Shown one piece after another: positions 36,287 through 45,758 of a stretch of 64,000 nucleotides of DNA; position 1 is the first letter of the stretch, and every line of letters begins with the position of its first letter. The DNA lies in the NCBI RefSeq assembly GCF_056712565.1, contig NZ_CM160072.1; one strand, written 5' to 3'. The translations under genes and the position numbers were made by a program. The notes below the pieces were generated by a model. It was not told the origin of the DNA, did not search any database, and was given only the letters and a program-made list of their open reading frames with translations.

Positions 36287-37765
36287 ATGTCGAAAAAATA
36301 CATCATAGGGATTGATGGCGGAAGTCAGAGCACAAAAGTGGTGATGTACGATCTGGAAGGTAATGTGGTTTGCGAAGGCAAAGGCTTATTGCAGCCGATG
36401 CACACGCCAGATGCCGATACCGCAGAACATCCTGACGACGATTTATGGGCATCATTATGCTTTGCCGGCCACGATTTGATGAGCCAGTTTGCCGGGAATA
36501 AAGAAGATATTGTCGGCATTGGCCTGGGATCCATCCGTTGCTGCCGTGCGTTATTGAAAGCCGATGGCACGCCTGCTGCGCCGTTGATTAGCTGGCAGGA
36601 TGCACGCGTAACGCGTCCCTACGAACACACTAATCCTGACGTGGCATATGTCACCTCTTTTTCGGGTTATCTGACGCACCGTTTAACGGGCGAATTTAAA
36701 GATAATATCGCCAACTATTTTGGTCAGTGGCCGGTGGATTATAAGACCTGGGCATGGAGCGAAGATGCCGCGGTAATGGAAAAGTTTAATATCCCCCGCC
36801 AGATGCTTTTTGACGTGCAAATGCCGGGCACCATTCTTGGGCATATCACACCACAAGCTGCGCTGGCGACACATTTCCCGGCTGGGCTGCCGGTTGTTTG
36901 TACCACCAGTGATAAACCGGTAGAAGCTCTGGGAGCCGGGTTACTGGATGATGAAACGGCGGTAATTTCTCTTGGCACCTATATCGCGTTAATGATGAAC
37001 GGCAAAGCACTGCCGAAAGATCCGGTCGCGTACTGGCCGATTATGTCTTCTATTCCGCAAACATTGCTGTATGAAGGTTACGGTATTCGCAAAGGCATGT
37101 GGACGGTGAGCTGGCTGCGCGACATGTTAGGCGAGTCGTTAATTCAGGATGCCAAAGCACAGGATCTTTCACCGGAAGATTTGCTCAACAAAAAAGCGTC
37201 TTGCGTGCCACCTGGTTGTAATGGGCTGATGACGGTGCTGGACTGGCTGACCAATCCGTGGGAACCGTACAAACGCGGAATTATGATCGGCTTTGATTCC
37301 AGTATGGATTACGCATGGATATATCGTTCGATACTGGAAAGCGTGGCGCTGACGCTGAAGAATAATTACGACAATATGTGTCATGAAATGAATCACTTTG
37401 CAAAGCATGTGATCATTACTGGCGGCGGTTCGAACAGCGATCTGTTTATGCAGATTTTTGCCGACGTGTTCAACCTTCCGGCACGCCGTAACGCCATTAA
37501 CGGTTGTGCAAGTCTGGGGGCAGCGATTAATACGGCGGTAGGTCTGGGGCTATACCCGGATTACGCAACGGCTGTCGACAAAATGGTTCGCGTGAAAGAT
37601 ATCTTTATGCCTGTTGAGAACAATGCCAAACGCTACGACGCGATGAATAAAGGCATTTTCAAGGAGTTAACCAAACATACTGATGTAATCCTGAAAAAAT
37701 CGTATGAAGTGATGCATGGGGAATTGGGGAATGCGGATTCGATCCAGAGCTGGTCGAATGCGTAA
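36287..37765 (+). CDS. ygcE: FGGY-family carbohydrate kinase
   Basis: 492-aa ORF MSKKYIIGIDGGSQSTKVVMYDLEG... with FGGY kinase N-terminal motif. Confidence 0.85.
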   Translation: MSKKYIIGIDGGSQSTKVVMYDLEGNVVCEGKGLLQPMHTPDADTAEHPDDDLWASLCFAGHDLMSQFAGNKEDIVGIGLGSIRCCRALLKADGTPAAPLISWQDARVTRPYEHTNPDVAYVTSFSGYLTHRLTGEFKDNIANYFGQWPVDYKTWAWSEDAAVMEKFNIPRQMLFDVQMPGTILGHITPQAALATHFPAGLPVVCTTSDKPVEALGAGLLDDETAVISLGTYIALMMNGKALPKDPVAYWPIMSSIPQTLLYEGYGIRKGMWTVSWLRDMLGESLIQDAKAQDLSPEDLLNKKASCVPPGCNGLMTVLDWLTNPWEPYKRGIMIGFDSSMDYAWIYRSILESVALTLKNNYDNMCHEMNHFAKHVIITGGGSNSDLFMQIFADVFNLPARRNAINGCASLGAAINTAVGLGLYPDYATAVDKMVRVKDIFMPVENNAKRYDAMNKGIFKELTKHTDVILKKSYEVMHGELGNADSIQSWSNA

Positions 37766-37810
37766 GTGAGGAAGGCCGGGCGGGAAACTGCCCGGCATGA
37801 ACATACCTGA

Positions 37811-37900
37811 ATGGTTATCCCCGCTGACGCGGGGAACTCATATCCGGTTTTTGCTGGTGGGCCGCGCCGTTCGGTTTATCCCCGCTGGTGCGGGGAACTC
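37811..37900 (-). CRISPR. Minimal orphan type I-E CRISPR array: two repeats and one 32-nt spacer
   Basis: Repeat A at 37872..37900 (cggtttatccccgctggtgcggggaactc) is the reverse complement of the E. coli type I-E repeat GAGTTCCCCGCGCCAGCGGGGATAAACCG with one mismatch. Repeat B at 37811..37839 (atggttatccccgctgacgcggggaactc) is a degenerate copy with 4 mismatches, as expected for a terminal repeat. Spacer 37840..37871: atatccggtttttgctggtgggccgcgccgtt. Location between ygcE and queE matches the K-12 CRISPR-II position. Confidence 0.85.
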
Positions 37901-38230
37901 TCTAAACATAACCTATTATTAATTAATTATTTTTTAAGCCAGTCACAATCTACCAACTTTACAGTATCACACAAACAACACATCCATTATGTTAAAGAGC
38001 ACTTAATCCATTGATTAAAAAGATAAATATTTAAAATAACTCTATTCAAACTAAAATCTACCAAACTTTACCGCAATAATTTTCACTCCAGCGAAAAATT
38101 AACGCCACAGAATTTGTAGAGAATGATAATGATTAGTCCAGAATGGGCAAAATGGAGGTTTTTCAGAGGCGACAAAGAATATAAATGAGTAGAAGTCTTT
38201 ACAGATTCCACCCATTTATAACGCTTATAA
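37901..38230 (-). promoter_or_regulatory. AT-rich putative CRISPR leader adjacent to the less-degenerate repeat
   Basis: About 330 bp of very AT-rich non-coding sequence abutting repeat A, on the side where a type I-E leader is expected. Extent not defined from sequence. Confidence 0.5.
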
Positions 38231-38238
38231 ATGTTTAA

Positions 38239-38910
38239 TCAGGCAATATTCAAATATTTATGTGTCTGCATCGACAAACGCCAGTTGCGCGCAATGCAGG
38301 TATCGATACATAAACGCGTAGCATCTTCCTTCTGGCTAATTGGCTGAAGTGCAATGACTCGCGGTTTATCATCGGTCAGCGTCGCCAGCAATTCGTCCAG
38401 TGCTTCAATATCACGTACGCGTCCCACTGGATGCTTGATTTCGTTGGCTCGCTCCAGGGCTTGCGACAATACTTCATAGCCGCCGCGCATGTTCAGCTTT
38501 GGCGATACGGTAACCCAGGTATTCGGTGTGCAGCGTACCTCATGAGTACCACTGGTTTCGATCTGGCAGCTAAAACCGTTCTTTTCGAGCAGGTCAGTCA
38601 GTGGCAGCAAATCATGAATGCAAGGCTCACCACCCGTAATCACCACGTGACGCGCGGTGTATCCCTGACGGCCAATGACAGCCAGCAAATCTTCACTGCT
38701 CGCCGCCCCCCACTTATCACTCTCTTTGGTCTTCGCCAGAATGCTGAAAAGGGAGACTTCCCGATCCTCAAGCTTTTCCCAGGTGTGTTTGGTGTCGCAC
38801 CAGGCACAGCCAACCGGACATCCCTGTAAACGAATAAAAATGGCGGGGACGCCGGTAAAGTAACCCTCACCTTGCAGGGTCTGGAACATCTCGTTAATCG
38901 GGTACTGCAT
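38239..38910 (-). CDS. queE: 7-carboxy-7-deazaguanine synthase (radical SAM)
   Basis: 223-aa ORF MQYPINEMFQTLQGEGYFTGVPAIFIRLQGCPVGCAWCDTKHTW... with radical-SAM Cys motif. Confidence 0.9.
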   Translation of the reverse strand: MQYPINEMFQTLQGEGYFTGVPAIFIRLQGCPVGCAWCDTKHTWEKLEDREVSLFSILAKTKESDKWGAASSEDLLAVIGRQGYTARHVVITGGEPCIHDLLPLTDLLEKNGFSCQIETSGTHEVRCTPNTWVTVSPKLNMRGGYEVLSQALERANEIKHPVGRVRDIEALDELLATLTDDKPRVIALQPISQKEDATRLCIDTCIARNWRLSMQTHKYLNIA

Positions 38911-39082
38911 AGCATTCTCTGTGAAGTGGATAATTGTTAATTATTGCAGATCCTGCCACAACAATCATGTCTTATTAACATTCTGTTACAGGCAGGTTTG
39001 ATGCAAAAATTGGCTCAGATCATTAAGAATAAAATGAAGCGGCGTATTATGTTTTCAAGGATTAAATGAAAGGGATTTAAAC

Positions 39083-39691
39083 ATGTTTAGAATATTCATC
39101 GCGTTTATATTTATTTTCAATTTATCAGGTTGCGGTTATAACGATATTCAAACCTATGATGAACAGGTTAATGCCTCCTGGTCAGAAGTATTAAATCAAT
39201 ATCAACGTCGCACCGATCTTATTCCTAATCTTGTCGCTAGTATTAAAGGTTACTCCAGCCATGAACAAGAGGTACTAGAAGCCGTAACATTGGCACGTAG
39301 TCAGGCTAATCGCGCCAGTAGCGATCTTCAGAAAACTCCGGGAGATGAACAAAAATTACAAGCCTGGCAACAGGCGCAGGCGCAGGCGCAGGTGACTCGC
39401 ACTCTCGGGCAGTTAACGATTATTAGTGAGCGTTACCCTCAGTTAAAGGCTCAAGAGCTCTATCAAAACTTAATGGTACAGCTCGAAGGAAGTGAAAATA
39501 GAATTGCCGTTGCGCGAGGAAGATATATTAAAGCCATTGAACAATATAATGTCACTATCCGCAAATTCCCCGCTGTATTAACCGCAAAGGTCATGGATTA
39601 CACACCAAAGAAAAATTATTTGCCGGATGATGTCACCGCAGTAAGTAAAGCCCCAACAATAGATTTTAGCCAGAATGCTAATGCTCATTAA
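39083..39691 (+). CDS. lemA: LemA-family protein
   Basis: 202-aa ORF with N-terminal lipoprotein-type signal/anchor (FIFIFNLSGCGYN) and LemA-like helical domain; AT-rich codon usage. Confidence 0.8.
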   Translation: MFRIFIAFIFIFNLSGCGYNDIQTYDEQVNASWSEVLNQYQRRTDLIPNLVASIKGYSSHEQEVLEAVTLARSQANRASSDLQKTPGDEQKLQAWQQAQAQAQVTRTLGQLTIISERYPQLKAQELYQNLMVQLEGSENRIAVARGRYIKAIEQYNVTIRKFPAVLTAKVMDYTPKKNYLPDDVTAVSKAPTIDFSQNANAH

Positions 39692-39704
39692 GCGGGGACG
39701 TTCT

Positions 39705-40598
39705 ATGCGAAATTTTATCTTCCTTATGGCTTTCTTCTGTTCATCTGTGTTTGCTACACAAATTCCAGTACCTGAATCACCCAGGTATGTGAATGACTTA
39801 ACCGGCACATTAACAAACAGCGAAGTAAACACCCTGACCAACCAGATTAAAGCCCTGACGCAAAAAAACCACGCACAGTTGGTCGTGTTAGTGGTTGATA
39901 CAACAGGCGATGAAACCATTGAGCAGTACGCAACGCGGGTATTCGATAGCTGGAAACCGGGTGATAAAGACCGTGATGATGGCGTTCTACTGTTAGTCGC
40001 CTGGCAGGATCATACCGTGCGTATTGAAATCGGTTACGGGCTGGAAGGTATTATTACGGATGCACAGTCCGGGAAAATTATTCGCAACAGTATTATTCCG
40101 GCATTTAAAAAAGGCGACCTGGCTGGTGGTTTACAAAAGGGGATCAACGATATTGAAAGTCGCCTGACGGGGAATAATTCAGCAACGATAACACCGACCG
40201 ATCACCCTTTGTCCTTTAGCGGTTGGTGGGCTTTATTAGTCTGGGCGATAATACTGACGTTTATTTCTGCCAGAGGATATATCAAAACGTTGGGAGTAAT
40301 TTGCTTCGCAGCCATTGTACTGGCCTTTGTTTTACCTATAGCAGGTTTCAGCGGAAGCTGGGGAGTACTCACAACATTACTCTGCTTCGCCACACCGTTT
40401 CTGGCAGTTGCCATCGCTTTTACCCCCTTCGGCAAAAAGGTTCGGGATTCGATGCGTGATGCCAACCAGCCATCACGCCATACAAGAAGCAATTCTTCCT
40501 CCCACTATTCATCATCGTCATCCTCTTCATTCGACAATGACAATTTTAGCGGTGGTGGCGGTTCATCTGGTGGCGGTGGCGCTTCCGGGCGCTGGTAA
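39705..40598 (+). CDS. TPM-domain (DUF477/YgcG-like) membrane protein, paralog 1, with Gly/Ser-rich C-terminal tail
   Basis: Start chosen at MRNFIFLMAFFCSSVFA (signal peptide); alternative ATGs lie at 39675 and 39681. TPM domain (LVVLVVDTTGDETIEQYATRVFDSWKPGDKDRDDGVLLLVAWQDHTVRIEIGYGLEG), 2–3 TM helices, poly-Ser linker, C-terminus GGGGSSGGGGASGRW. Confidence 0.75.
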   Translation: MRNFIFLMAFFCSSVFATQIPVPESPRYVNDLTGTLTNSEVNTLTNQIKALTQKNHAQLVVLVVDTTGDETIEQYATRVFDSWKPGDKDRDDGVLLLVAWQDHTVRIEIGYGLEGIITDAQSGKIIRNSIIPAFKKGDLAGGLQKGINDIESRLTGNNSATITPTDHPLSFSGWWALLVWAIILTFISARGYIKTLGVICFAAIVLAFVLPIAGFSGSWGVLTTLLCFATPFLAVAIAFTPFGKKVRDSMRDANQPSRHTRSNSSSHYSSSSSSSFDNDNFSGGGGSSGGGGASGRW

Positions 40599-40612
40599 CA
40601 AAAGGAATTGAT

Positions 40613-41761
40613 ATGCGTATTTTTCTCTTACTTCTGATGCTATGCGGTTTTCAGGTATTCGCTGAACGATTGCCTTCAGTGACTGACTTAACCGGGACAT
40701 TAACGACAGAAGAACAAAGTGCTTTAAATCAACAATTACAGACTCTCGAGCAGCAAAACCACTTCCAGGTGGCCGTGTTGGTTACGCCGACAACAGGGGG
40801 CAAAAACATTAAACTTGCAGCCTCGCAGAGATACGGGGTATATCACTGGAAACCCGTTGGAGAGAAGCGATATGGCGAAGGTATTTTAATTCTCGTCGTT
40901 TGGCCGGAAGGGCTGGCGTCAATGAAGATTGGACATGGACTGGAACAGATGTTGCCGCCGGAACAAGCTGCGCAAATTGTTCGTTACCATATGCAGCCAG
41001 AATTCGAAAAAAACAATCTCTTTGCTGGATTAACGGGCGGAATTGAAAGCATCGCACAGTTTACCCATATCAAAGCGAACCTTAGCCCTTTGGATGCTTT
41101 AGCCAATCATCTGTTTGCTAATCCGCAACTTTCGCTGCCATGCCTTGCCTGGACAGTGCTGATGATCGTTGCCATCATTGTCCTCTGGCGATTTACCAGC
41201 CGTCCAGGACCTGGCATATGGATGATATCAATGATTACACCTACGGTCTGGTTTTTCTGCTTTCAGGACGATGTCATCATTCGGCGGGTGTCGGTCGTTT
41301 GTTTTAGTTTATTTTTCGCAGCAATCTGCTGGCAGCGTCTCGCAGTAGTTTTTAATATGTGCCGCGTATTTCCTATGATGCTGGCCCCAAAAAATAAAAA
41401 CGCGAAAGTGAAAAAACAAAAGAAGACTCCGCAAGTTCGTGAATCAGGACGAAATTCATTGTTTGTCGTGATGCTGATAATTATTGTGGGATGGTGCCTG
41501 GTGTTCGCCAGTAATAAAGATATTGCATTCATCTCAACAATTATTGGGTTAATTGATCATTTTATCGGCCCAATAACCATTGCTGGCATCGTTCTGCTGA
41601 TCATTGTGGCCAAATTTACTGGCAATCTTAAGCTGGGGTCAGGAGAAAAAAGCAACAGGAAAACGGGGAATCGTAATGCTCATTCTCGCTCTTCGTCGAG
41701 AAATTCTTTCCGCGGTGGTGGCGGTTCTTCAGGAGGCGGCGGTTCATCCGGCCGTTGGTGA
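40613..41761 (+). CDS. TPM-domain membrane protein, paralog 2 (more divergent, extended multi-TM region), same C-terminal tail
   Basis: 382-aa ORF with ATG start and AGGA RBS; signal peptide MRIFLLLLMLCGFQVFA; TPM-like N-terminal domain; long hydrophobic and lysine-rich middle region; C-terminus RGGGGSSGGGGSSGRW. Confidence 0.75.
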   Translation: MRIFLLLLMLCGFQVFAERLPSVTDLTGTLTTEEQSALNQQLQTLEQQNHFQVAVLVTPTTGGKNIKLAASQRYGVYHWKPVGEKRYGEGILILVVWPEGLASMKIGHGLEQMLPPEQAAQIVRYHMQPEFEKNNLFAGLTGGIESIAQFTHIKANLSPLDALANHLFANPQLSLPCLAWTVLMIVAIIVLWRFTSRPGPGIWMISMITPTVWFFCFQDDVIIRRVSVVCFSLFFAAICWQRLAVVFNMCRVFPMMLAPKNKNAKVKKQKKTPQVRESGRNSLFVVMLIIIVGWCLVFASNKDIAFISTIIGLIDHFIGPITIAGIVLLIIVAKFTGNLKLGSGEKSNRKTGNRNAHSRSSSRNSFRGGGGSSGGGGSSGRW

Positions 41762-41766
41762 TCGTA

Positions 41767-42660
41767 ATGCGCTTAATCTTTATTCTATTCACTTTGTGGT
41801 GCCTTCCTGGGCTTGCCCAGCAAATTGCTGTGCCGGAACTGCGCCAACAGGTGACCGATATTACTGGTACGTTAAGCACTTCTGAACAACAATCACTGAC
41901 ACAGCAACTGCAGGATATTACACATAAAACACGGGCGCAGGTCGCTGTATTAGTAGTGCCGTCCACCGGAGACGATTCCATTGAACAATATGCTACAAGG
42001 GTTTTTGATAGCTGGAAACTGGGAGATAAGCAGAGAAACGATGGTATTTTACTTCTGGTTGCCTGGGAGGATCATGCTGTTCGTATTGAGGTTGGCTACG
42101 GGCTGGAAGGGGTGGTTACCGACCTGCAAGCGGCGAAGATTATCAGGGATATATTGATCCCTGCCTTCAAAAGTGATGACCTGATGGGTGGATTAACACT
42201 GGCAAGCGAAAATATCGGCGCGCTTCTGTTGAATGGTGAATTACCGGAAGACAGGGGGGATTATTACAGTATCAATCCCCCTATTCCATTATCGCTTGCT
42301 GTAATTATATTGCTGGCGGTACTTTCATATTTTATTGTTTTTACCGATCCGTCGAATTTACCCTGGATCACTCTCACTGGCGCCATTTACGGGATGGTAT
42401 TCCTCTATGTTGCCGAGCCAGGACCATGGACCAATTTAATCGTTGCCTGCGGTATGTTAACGCCTTTTGCGATCGTACCACTGGTTGTTTTTTGGCTTAT
42501 CGTCAATAAAAAGCTACGCGCCAAATACAAAAAACTCAGTAAAGAAAGAGCTTCAAGAAAAGGTTCTTCTTCATCCTCTTCCGGTGGAGGCTCAAGTGGC
42601 GGCGGATTTAGCGGCGGGGGCGGTTCTTCTGGCGGTGGCGGCGCGTCCGGTCGCTGGTAA
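41767..42660 (+). CDS. ygcG: TPM-domain membrane protein, paralog 3 (probable ygcG ortholog), same C-terminal tail
   Basis: Start at MRLIFILFTLWCLPGLA (the track ORF begins 4 codons earlier at a TTG). TPM domain about 70% identical to paralog 1 by eye (VAVLVVPSTGDDSIEQYATRVFDSWKLGDKQRNDGILLLVAWEDHAVRIEVGYGLEG); C-terminus GGGSSGGGFSGGGGSSGGGGASGRW. Adjacent to eno as ygcG is in K-12 (from memory). Confidence 0.75.
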   Translation: MRLIFILFTLWCLPGLAQQIAVPELRQQVTDITGTLSTSEQQSLTQQLQDITHKTRAQVAVLVVPSTGDDSIEQYATRVFDSWKLGDKQRNDGILLLVAWEDHAVRIEVGYGLEGVVTDLQAAKIIRDILIPAFKSDDLMGGLTLASENIGALLLNGELPEDRGDYYSINPPIPLSLAVIILLAVLSYFIVFTDPSNLPWITLTGAIYGMVFLYVAEPGPWTNLIVACGMLTPFAIVPLVVFWLIVNKKLRAKYKKLSKERASRKGSSSSSSGGGSSGGGFSGGGGSSGGGGASGRW

Positions 42661-42670
42661 CTCAACCATA

Positions 42671-42700
42671 AAAAACGCCAGCCCGAAGGCTGGCATTTTT
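42671..42700. terminator. Bidirectional rho-independent terminator between the TPM operon and eno
   Basis: GC hairpin gccagcc-cgaa-ggctggc flanked by an A-run upstream and a T-run downstream on the + strand. Coordinates approximate. Confidence 0.6.
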
Positions 42701-42719
42701 AAATCAGATAAAGTCAGAC

Positions 42720-44033
<1,314 letters not shown>

Positions 44034-44105
44034 TCACTAGTTAAACTGAAACTCCAGACAAACAACGCGTACCCAGGGTACGCGTTGCCGTTCTAACTTT
44101 TTTAC

Positions 44106-45758
<1,653 letters not shown>

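Follow-up and report, generated by a model that had tools for sequence, protein, structure and literature searches.

The 64-kb window analysed here, the whole stretch of 64,000 nucleotides (nt) from contig NZ_CM160072.1 of RefSeq assembly GCF_056712565.1, carries between queE and eno the gene lemA followed by three genes for TPM-domain proteins, which we designate TPM1, TPM2 and TPM3. The locus is the Escherichia version of a widespread LemA-YgcG envelope module of unassigned function. Based on comparison with related species, its four-gene form is most probably ancestral, and most E. coli including K-12 appear to have lost lemA, TPM1 and TPM2, K-12 being a reduced mosaic derivative; we consider this account of the identity and evolution of the locus very nearly certain. 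When the account is combined with the proposal that the products serve as an envelope-stress maintenance scaffold, we give the whole reading a probability of about 0.45. The genes are annotated, both families were already known and the locus is not categorically new. What appears to be undescribed in the literature searched is the Escherichia architecture of three membrane paralogues with a degenerate middle subunit and no small TPM partner, as well as the polarity of the difference from K-12, the nature of yqcG as a lemA stump and a family-wide, apparently cytoplasmic motif. The features of the locus are given below, with protein lengths in amino acids (aa) and genes called as open reading frames (ORFs).

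38239..38910, minus strand: queE, conserved left flank, divergent from lemA (ORF and RefSeq annotation)
38911..39082, no strand: queE-lemA intergenic region with divergent promoters (alignment with K-12)
39083..39691, plus strand: lemA, 202 aa (Pfam LemA PF04011, E=4.4e-47; PDB 2ETD, E=3e-32)
39705..40598, plus strand: TPM1, 297 aa (TPM_phosphatase PF04536, E=2.6e-41)
40545..40599, plus strand: tail-coding repeat copy 1 (F-S-GGGG-SS-GGGG-A-SGRW and stop), direct-repeat family D1
40613..41761, plus strand: TPM2, 382 aa (PF04536, E=1.5e-21)
41708..41762, plus strand: tail-coding repeat copy 2, family D1
41767..42660, plus strand: TPM3, 297 aa (PF04536, E=3.9e-38); the RefSeq start is a GTG at 41758
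41944..42122, plus strand: recombination zone in the conserved TPM core of TPM3 (BLAST of the ATCC 25922-type locus against the window and K-12)
42607..42661, plus strand: tail-coding repeat copy 3, family D1; homology with K-12 resumes just upstream, at ~42579
42677..42694, no strand: intrinsic-terminator hairpin between the convergent TPM3 and eno (GCCAGCC-CGAA-GGCTGGC, then a T-run)
42720..44018, minus strand: eno, conserved right flank (ORF and RefSeq annotation)

The operon and its four envelope proteins

Since the four plus-strand ORFs are separated by spacers of 5-14 nt and followed by a terminal hairpin, they form one operon between queE and eno that is ended by a strong terminator, as a sequence-only reading of this DNA had proposed. 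The spacers are 13 nt between lemA and TPM1, 14 nt between TPM1 and TPM2 and 5 nt between TPM2 and TPM3, the last becoming a 4-nt overlap with the GTG start of TPM3, and the start of TPM1 is placed at 39705 by RefSeq, the longest ORF beginning at 39675. The terminator hairpin has a stem of 7 bp with 6 G-C pairs, followed by ATTTTTAAAT. On the left side, homology with K-12 DNA runs from queE to ~39117, 35 nt inside lemA; within the intergenic region the ~105 nt nearest queE are identical to K-12 and the half nearest lemA is more diverged. Promoter-like sites were found at 39023-39050 and 39066-39093, in a promoter scan that overall was not above chance, and an Rfam scan of 37500-44200 matched no family. 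The complete genome of E. coli strain Z0117EC0054 is 100% identical across this region, and RefSeq labels the four products of that strain as one 'LemA family protein' and three 'TPM domain-containing protein'.

LemA matches PF04011 over its full length (model positions 1-149 of 149) and also the solved T. maritima LemA structure 2ETD, deposited as 'lemA protein'. Its N-terminus, MFRIFIAFIFIFNLSGC-GYND, contains the lipobox L-S-G-C at residues 14-17, and the lipobox together with the CGYN that follows is kept in the Escherichia (E. albertii), Klebsiella, Yersinia and Pseudomonas orthologues, the lipobox being conserved across five genera. Because of this conserved lipobox and CGYN motif, LemA is predicted to be a lipoprotein with its helical-bundle domain facing the periplasm, which agrees with the extracytoplasmic orientation proposed for the LemA family (PMC3905215). 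Both the family assignment and the lipoprotein-type N-terminus noted from the sequence alone are borne out by the full-length match and the LSGC lipobox.

The assignment of the three downstream proteins to the TPM family likewise held in the domain search (PF04536, E=2.6e-41, 1.5e-21 and 3.9e-38). TPM1, TPM2 and TPM3 each open with a typical Sec signal peptide (MR-hydrophobic-A|x) and, with the lipobox on LemA, an envelope location of all four products is supported as had been suggested. The structure of TPM1 was predicted with AlphaFold2 on an alignment of 75 sequences, with a mean predicted local distance difference test score (pLDDT) of 79.7. In this model the TPM domain has a pLDDT above 90 and is accompanied by a short charged helix and by transmembrane (TM) helices at residues 173-189, 193-212 and 218-238; the Ser-rich linker at 258-289 is disordered, with a pLDDT of 30-40, and the last 7 residues (291-297; window 40575-40595) are unexpectedly modelled as a beta-strand with a pLDDT of ~90. 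Foldseek matched the TPM1 domain to BA41 (5ANP), with a root-mean-square deviation of 1.6 Å at 34% identity and a sequence match to 5ANP of E=8.6e-20, and also to 7TBR, PG0361, TLP18.3, Psb32 and LMTP1, and more distantly to a subunit of ~145 residues in the mycobacterial CIII2CIV2 respiratory supercomplex, with superposition of the model on 5ANP, 7TBR and 3PTJ; by sequence the TPM domains match BA41, Rhom172_1776 and PG0361. Many polar residues of the TPM domain are invariant, namely D31, E73, R78, D92, D102, R106, E108, E114 and D119; TPM1 and TPM3 retain the conserved polar core and differ from the family consensus at 5 and 3 of 42 highly conserved positions, respectively. TPM3 is 42-44% identical to TPM1, and besides the Gly tail and a Ser/Gly linker it has a segment rich in Lys/Arg; three TM helices can be recognized by eye, of which a hydropathy scan gives those at 168-196 and 223-250 and misses the weaker middle helix.

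From these features, TPM1-3 are predicted to be inner-membrane proteins with a periplasmic TPM domain, 3-5 TM helices and a Ser/Gly-rich linker after the last TM helix. Because the last TM helix of each of the three proteins is followed by a Lys/Arg-rich segment, and because the simplest family members have a single TM helix and then RGGRRR at once, we infer that the Gly tail and the linker lie in the cytoplasm, on the other side of the membrane from the TPM domain, an assignment based on the single-TM members and the positive-inside rule. The parity of TM helices across ~95 homologues, counted with a hydropathy window, was dropped as proof of a cytoplasmic tail since weak middle helices, that of TPM3 included, are missed by this approach.

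The tails of TPM1, TPM2 and TPM3, NFSGGGGSSGGGGASGRW, SFRGGGGSSGGGGSSGRW and GFSGGGGSSGGGGASGRW, respectively, all fit F-(S/R)-GGGG-SS-GGGG-(A/S)-SGRW. A tail shared by the three paralogues had been singled out earlier; it is indeed present on all of them, but it is not specific to paralogues of this locus, as nearly every sampled YgcG-family protein of Beta-, Gamma- and other Proteobacteria has it, with the consensus GGF[SR]GGGG[SG][SF]GGGG[AS]SGxW and an invariant terminal Trp, in a survey whose word-based choice of candidates favours sequences with the tail. The Gly tail is rather a hallmark of the whole YgcG family, and all three TPM proteins show every element of that family, from the signal peptide and TPM domain to the TM region and the terminal F-x-GGGG-xx-GGGG-(A/S)SG-x-W. 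The tail-coding segments show many synonymous Gly and Ser codon differences among the three copies, which rules out gene conversion in recent times as the cause of their likeness, and the identity of the tails is therefore kept by selection on the peptide.

TPM2 is the divergent paralogue. It differs from the consensus at 18 of the 42 highly conserved TPM positions, including E73K, R78Q, R106S, E108K and D119P, and its TPM domain is to all appearances degenerate; it has ~5 TM helices, including a Lys-rich loop, in addition to the Gly tail. Full-length relatives of TPM2 are found only in Escherichia. A word-index-free search with its membrane region returned 11 proteins among 1.84 billion representatives, nine of them with 68-99% identity to the query, as close relatives or fragments would show, and the other two 36-39% identical, which fits Klebsiella-like forms. 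In the TPM2-like proteins of Klebsiella spallanzanii the TPM domain is gone entirely, and what is preserved is the signal peptide, a TM region of the TPM2 kind and the tail. Since this domain is degenerate in Escherichia and lost in K. spallanzanii while the TM region and tail persist, the membrane part and the tail are probably the conserved portion of TPM2, with a dispensable TPM domain.

Distribution and ancestry of the locus

The state of the locus was determined in 5,426 complete E. coli genomes, where an interior covered to at least 80% was taken as the four-gene state. The strain variability anticipated from the sequence was evident from three main states: the four-gene interior in 1,102 genomes (20%), the yqcG-ygcG form of K-12 in 3,929 (72%) and a third form, made up of lemA, a truncated TPM1 pseudogene and an unrelated 120-aa ORF, in 340 (6%). 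Most E. coli genomes thus differ from this strain at the site, ~20% carrying the same four genes against 72% with the K-12 form. The four-gene group includes O157:H7, O145, NU14 and ATCC 25922, with urinary-tract strains among the carriers. TPM3 of the type in this window is present in 782 of the four-gene genomes, and the other ~320 have a chimeric third gene that switches from TPM3-type to K-12 YgcG-type sequence inside the TPM core (window 41944-42122). Decay occurs inside the four-gene group, for example as a truncated TPM1, and in a strain of the third, degraded form the insertion sequence (IS) IS1 is inserted in lemA. The 120-aa ORF after the TPM1 pseudogene in the 340 genomes of the third form, at 3902-4264 of the example locus, has predicted hydrophobic segments and no annotation. 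E. coli copies are always chromosomal and at this queE-eno site, with a median of one place per genome, and no copies of the locus were found on E. coli plasmids.

In K-12 the queE-eno interval holds only yqcG (46 aa) and ygcG, in line with the single K-12 ygcG named in the sequence-only reading. The yqcG gene (2311-2451 of the K-12 locus) aligns to window 39049-39175, that is, to the lemA leader and the first ~31 codons of lemA, with the lipobox Cys lost and a start codon recruited upstream of the lemA start; the ST131 copy also has a frameshift. It appears that yqcG is a 5' remnant of lemA and not a dedicated small-protein gene. The RefSeq product name of K-12 YqcG is 'cell envelope stress response protein YqcG', and its induction by envelope stress was reportedly first described by Hemm et al. 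in 2010; the link between YqcG and stress induction is taken here from the product name. K-12 YgcG is ~42-44% identical to TPM3, depending on BLAST settings, and differs from the consensus at 7 of the 42 conserved TPM positions. The 3' two-thirds of its gene recurs, joined to the 5' end of TPM3, as the third gene of ATCC 25922-type strains, and K-12 ygcG is best explained as a mosaic allele of the third TPM gene. Past nt 35 of lemA the homology with K-12 breaks off, and it is regained at 42579, where TPM3 encodes its tail. A simple deletion from the four-gene form was rejected as the origin of the K-12 allele, the K-12 interior holding no DNA near-identical to that of the window. A homologue search with K-12 YgcG gave 120 top matches that were all from E. 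coli and no source for its unique 5' part and TM region.

The sequence-only reading had regarded lemA and the additional paralogues as an expansion of ~2.5 kb relative to K-12. Synteny in E. albertii and Klebsiella, together with the yqcG remnant, reverses this polarity and indicates retention here and reduction in K-12. E. albertii has the same arrangement, queE-lemA-TPM1-TPM2-TPM3-eno, K. quasipneumoniae has queE-lemA-(TPM3-like)-eno, and in K. spallanzanii the order is queE-lemA-(TPM1-like)-(TPM2-like without TPM domain)-CRISPR array-eno. The TPM paralogues are mutually only 35-44% identical, and are therefore old, and they are about as distant from the single-copy proteins of Pseudomonas and Yersinia. 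It is this synteny, the age of the paralogues and the derivation of yqcG from lemA that argue for the four-gene form as the ancestral one. The triplication probably either predates the Escherichia-Klebsiella split or passed between these genera in the distant past, with different members lost later.

The locus is inherited vertically at the queE-eno site, and the suggestion that it is an inserted or accessory element was not upheld: in a search for signs of mobile elements no direct or inverted repeats were found to flank it, E. coli plasmids lack it, and the PADLOC-DB 2.0 defence models gave no match to the four proteins, the sole hit being at chance level (LemA, E=0.018). Against E. albertii, the four genes have synonymous divergence (dS) values of 0.34-0.71, and ratios of nonsynonymous to synonymous divergence (dN/dS) of 0.04 for lemA, 0.13 for TPM1, 0.21 for TPM2 and 0.13 for TPM3. 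Because dN/dS is as low as 0.04-0.21, all four genes are under purifying selection where they are retained.

For the wider family, a LemA profile scan was made with one genome per species and the neighbours were classified in the 80 best loci. The prevailing arrangement, in 60 of the 80, is lemA with one YgcG-type gene and one small TPM gene whose product lacks a signal peptide and TM helices; lemA with a YgcG-type gene only was found in 5, the contig ended just past the YgcG-type gene in 8, no TPM gene was found in 6 (three of these contigs being very short), and lemA with three membrane TPM genes and no small TPM was found in 1, E. albertii. In 66 of the 80 species lemA adjoins a YgcG-type gene. 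The small TPM protein has ~165 aa in the plasmid examples and is presumably cytoplasmic, since it has neither signal peptide nor TM helix. Enterobacterales generally have lemA and one YgcG-type gene in varied housekeeping contexts with no small TPM, and Escherichia has three membrane TPM paralogues in place of the small partner. A profile hidden Markov model (HMM) for the small type hit TPM1 and TPM3 only, and weakly, in the 64-kb window, a general TPM HMM hit only the three membrane proteins, and tblastn of the small TPM against one E. coli chromosome present in the plasmid collection gave no hit. LemA relatives were found in 36 of 50,697 phage records, none of them enterobacterial phages, and in 96 of 72,556 plasmid records, several of which are misfiled chromosomes.

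Some individual loci merit description. In Yersinia rohdei the lemA-TPM pair (7001-8524 of its locus) belongs to the interior of a type VI secretion cluster, with an FGE-sulfatase-domain gene on one side and a PAAR gene on the other; a general association with type VI secretion was discarded, as Brenneria, Photorhabdus and Tenebrionibacter do not share this placement. In Xanthomonas massiliensis (6305-7966 of its locus) the YgcG-type and small-type TPM domains are in one stop-to-stop ORF of 554 codons, which could be a natural fusion or a sequencing frameshift and, if real, would support a physical link between the YgcG-type and small TPM proteins. The CRISPR array of K. spallanzanii, at 6860-8460 of its locus, sits between the TPM2-like gene and eno, and the queE-eno neighbourhood hosts arrays repeatedly in enterobacteria. 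In the window, one type I-E CRISPR repeat with 1 mismatch is found at 37872-37898, between ygcE and queE, a position taken by a full array in K-12; it is an orphan CRISPR remnant, and in the identical strain Z0117EC0054 the cysH-iap interval holds just a hok/gef gene and no cas operon.

A proposed role and its alternatives

Few bacterial envelope proteins without an assigned function are as widespread as LemA and the YgcG-type TPM proteins. We propose that the four proteins of this operon would form one membrane-spanning assembly of the inner membrane, with LemA on the periplasmic side, that would be switched on by envelope or ion stress and whose task would be that of a scaffold for maintenance or assembly, not of a metabolic enzyme. 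The TPM domains and LemA may attach, at the outer face, to membrane protein complexes or to membrane that has been damaged, in the manner of the TPM proteins of photosystem II and the levamisole receptor, and the cytoplasmic tail may be a short docking peptide for a partner inside. In the canonical trio this partner would be the downstream TPM protein that lacks a signal peptide and TM helices, to which the tail would add a beta-strand; in Escherichia, where the small TPM partner is absent, the membrane subunit would have been triplicated instead, with TPM2 as a degenerate, mainly structural subunit. A scaffold is suggested because the only characterised relatives, TLP18.3, Psb32, MOLO-1, the CIII2CIV2 subunit and MamQ, are accessory factors of membrane systems, and the idea of a docking peptide comes from the confident terminal strand that AlphaFold2 gives in the tail of TPM1.

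The stress-induced character of the assembly is suggested by the name of YqcG and by three further observations. In K-12, PhoP-P binds both tested segments upstream of queE, at 0-300 bp and ~300-600 bp from the start codon (PMC4974570), in Flavobacterium a mutant of sppA (signal-peptide-peptidase) shows induction of lemA and a TPM gene (PMC13236525), and in two Cupriavidus evolution experiments, one of them selecting salt tolerance, a residue of YgcG toggled. A search for PhoP-box patterns near lemA gave just low-quality matches, set against 52 chance hits in the background. Taken on its own, the scaffold mechanism is a tentative proposal which we would place somewhat below even odds.

Several points weigh against it. 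A literature search on LemA-TPM yielded no functional study. About 80% of E. coli lack the complete set, with pseudogenes and IS insertions being common, and the function is thus dispensable in many niches. Stress induction is known from the K-12 remnant, whose lemA-proximal promoter half differs from that of this strain, and the AlphaFold2 model of TPM2 is poor, with a pLDDT of 56. The Enterobacterales keep the tail without any small TPM lacking a signal peptide and TM helices, and therefore the small TPM is not the only partner of the tail; moreover, a tail strand docked within the same TPM1 chain would contradict the topology proposed above. Finally, weak phosphatase or ATPase activity has also been reported for TPM domains, and a catalytic role is possible.

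Such a role is at the centre of the alternative that fares best, although we consider it unlikely, namely that the periplasmic TPM domains are phosphatases or nucleotidases of metal and phosphate homeostasis, which would buffer divalent-cation stress by phosphate release or by nucleotide or polyphosphate hydrolysis, with LemA as an accessory. Consistent with this, the trio on conjugative or large plasmids is set within heavy-metal resistance islands, at 5959-7933 of the Pseudomonas and 5959-7948 of the Polaromonas plasmid locus, where its neighbours include a P-type ATPase, HMA-domain proteins, DUF305 and ppk2 as well as an isoprenylcysteine carboxyl methyltransferase family protein. Many of the polar residues of the TPM domain do not vary, and the Mg2+-sensing PhoP binds the neighbouring K-12 region. 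The nearest solved structure is that of BA41, which is reported to have ATPase/ADPase activity, and in addition BA42 reportedly binds metal and TLP18.3 is reported to be a weak acid phosphatase. However, the Escherichia locus lies amid housekeeping genes with no metal genes nearby, TPM2 has been retained despite losing 18 of the 42 conserved positions, as has the Klebsiella orthologue despite losing the domain, and the conserved tail across the membrane from the TPM domain is left unexplained; in the field, TPM domains have no consensus function (10.1101/2024.10.28.620569).

The polymorphism of the site, with at least four alleles including mosaic recombinants at one fixed E. coli position, could also be held by antagonistic selection, if the operon were a conflict or immunity module that guards the envelope against phages or membrane-targeting toxins such as type VI effectors and colicins. 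The TM regions are hypervariable, the Yersinia rohdei pair is inside a type VI secretion cluster between a gene of the putative effector region and PAAR, several genomes have CRISPR arrays or their remnants beside the locus, and LemA relatives are present in some phages. The variation nevertheless resembles decay, by truncation, IS insertion and deletion, and not diversifying replacement, and dN/dS is well below 1 in all four genes. In other Enterobacterales the housekeeping neighbourhoods of the pair are unrelated, plasmids never carry the E. coli locus, no PADLOC model matched, and just 36 of the 50,697 phage records, none enterobacterial, had a LemA hit, all of which makes this explanation improbable.

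A trans-envelope stress sensor, comparable to RcsF-IgaA or NlpE-CpxA, seems to us no more probable. Here LemA would be in the outer membrane and would touch the inner-membrane TPM proteins only under perturbation, with the cytoplasmic tail as the signalling element. In E. coli a Gly after the lipidated Cys predicts sorting to the outer membrane under the +2 rule, and this residue is Gly, not Asp, in LemA; the inner membrane is spanned by the TPM proteins, whose invariant peptide is apparently cytoplasmic, and the remnant gene is named for envelope-stress induction. Yet neither the operon nor its surroundings encode a kinase, a sigma/anti-sigma pair or another output domain, the partner in the canonical module is a further TPM domain and not a regulator, and three sensor paralogues would be unusual. 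That the operon is a decaying relic without current function in E. coli is similarly improbable, for although 72% of complete genomes hold just the remnant and 6% a degraded form, and single strains have a truncated TPM1 or IS1 in lemA, the lineages that keep the locus have four intact genes under purifying selection (dS 0.34-0.71, dN/dS 0.04-0.21) with the tail preserved despite synonymous change.

Beyond the maintenance scaffold that we favour, a bolder and rather unlikely possibility is that the tail is a strand-donating docking motif for TPM folds and that LemA-YgcG is a trans-membrane relay, with LemA and the TPM domain outside and the tail capturing a TPM or other partner inside; the Escherichia form would be a reconstruction of this relay, a hetero-oligomer in which three membrane subunits are arranged about degenerate TPM2 as the scaffold. 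If the relay were real, it would be an unrecognised envelope-stress or repair machine that has been overlooked since K-12 is a natural null mutant. If, instead, the operon serves ordinary envelope housekeeping, the gain is a better annotation and a warning on the use of K-12 as the reference for this site. With its 46-codon lemA stump and one mosaic TPM gene, K-12 is unsuited as a model for the family; the intact operon in important pathogens such as O157:H7 and O145, and in the urinary or clinical reference strains NU14 and ATCC 25922, makes direct study possible in tractable E. coli.

Comparison with characterised relatives

The TPM fold is shared with TLP18.3/Psb32, which act in photosystem II repair and assembly, and with MOLO-1, and in all of these the domain likewise faces away from the cytoplasm and is TM-anchored; TPM proteins are regarded as accessory factors of photosystem II (10.1101/2024.10.28.620569). 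TLP18.3 matches TPM1 with a Foldseek probability of 1.00 and a TM-score of 0.77-0.78 normalised to the target, at a structure-alignment identity of 14-15%. Unlike the proteins described here, TLP18.3/Psb32 have a photosystem partner, and the Foldseek alignments span just the ~140-residue TPM domain and are uninformative on the tail or the LemA partner. Against the Psb32 family of NCBIfam (NF047379, equivalog cutoff 160 bits), TPM1 scored 34.0 and TPM3 31.1 bits, and TPM2 gave no hit. BA41, BA42, PG0361 and Rhom172_1776, to which the TPM domains are closest in sequence and structure, have been studied as isolated domains, with reported activities (nucleotidase, metal binding) that carry no link to LemA or to a physiological role.

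On the LemA side, MamQ is the only family member tied to a cellular process, the formation of a membrane compartment, being required for magnetosome membrane formation (PMC4902198). It shares the LemA fold (NCBIfam MamQ, E=4e-26), but LemA of this locus reaches only 91.8 bits in the MamQ model NF040966, below the equivalog cutoff of 250 bits, and MamQ differs in having a single modelled N-terminal TM anchor instead of a lipobox and in its location in the magnetosome island.

The closest relatives in organization are K-12 yqcG-ygcG and the canonical trio. The K-12 form occupies the same site, with the same queE-proximal promoter DNA and a YgcG-type TPM protein with an identical tail, whereas its lemA is cut to the 46-codon yqcG, TPM1 and TPM2 are absent and YgcG is only ~42-44% identical to TPM3. 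The canonical lemA-ygcG-small TPM trio of Proteobacteria and Leptospira has, as here, a CGYN LemA lipoprotein and immediately after it a YgcG-type protein, in which a signal peptide, the TPM domain and TM helices precede a Gly tail ending in W. Its third gene, however, encodes a TPM protein of ~165 aa without signal peptide or TM helices, in place of which Escherichia has three YgcG-type genes, an arrangement represented by 1 of the 80 species, E. albertii.

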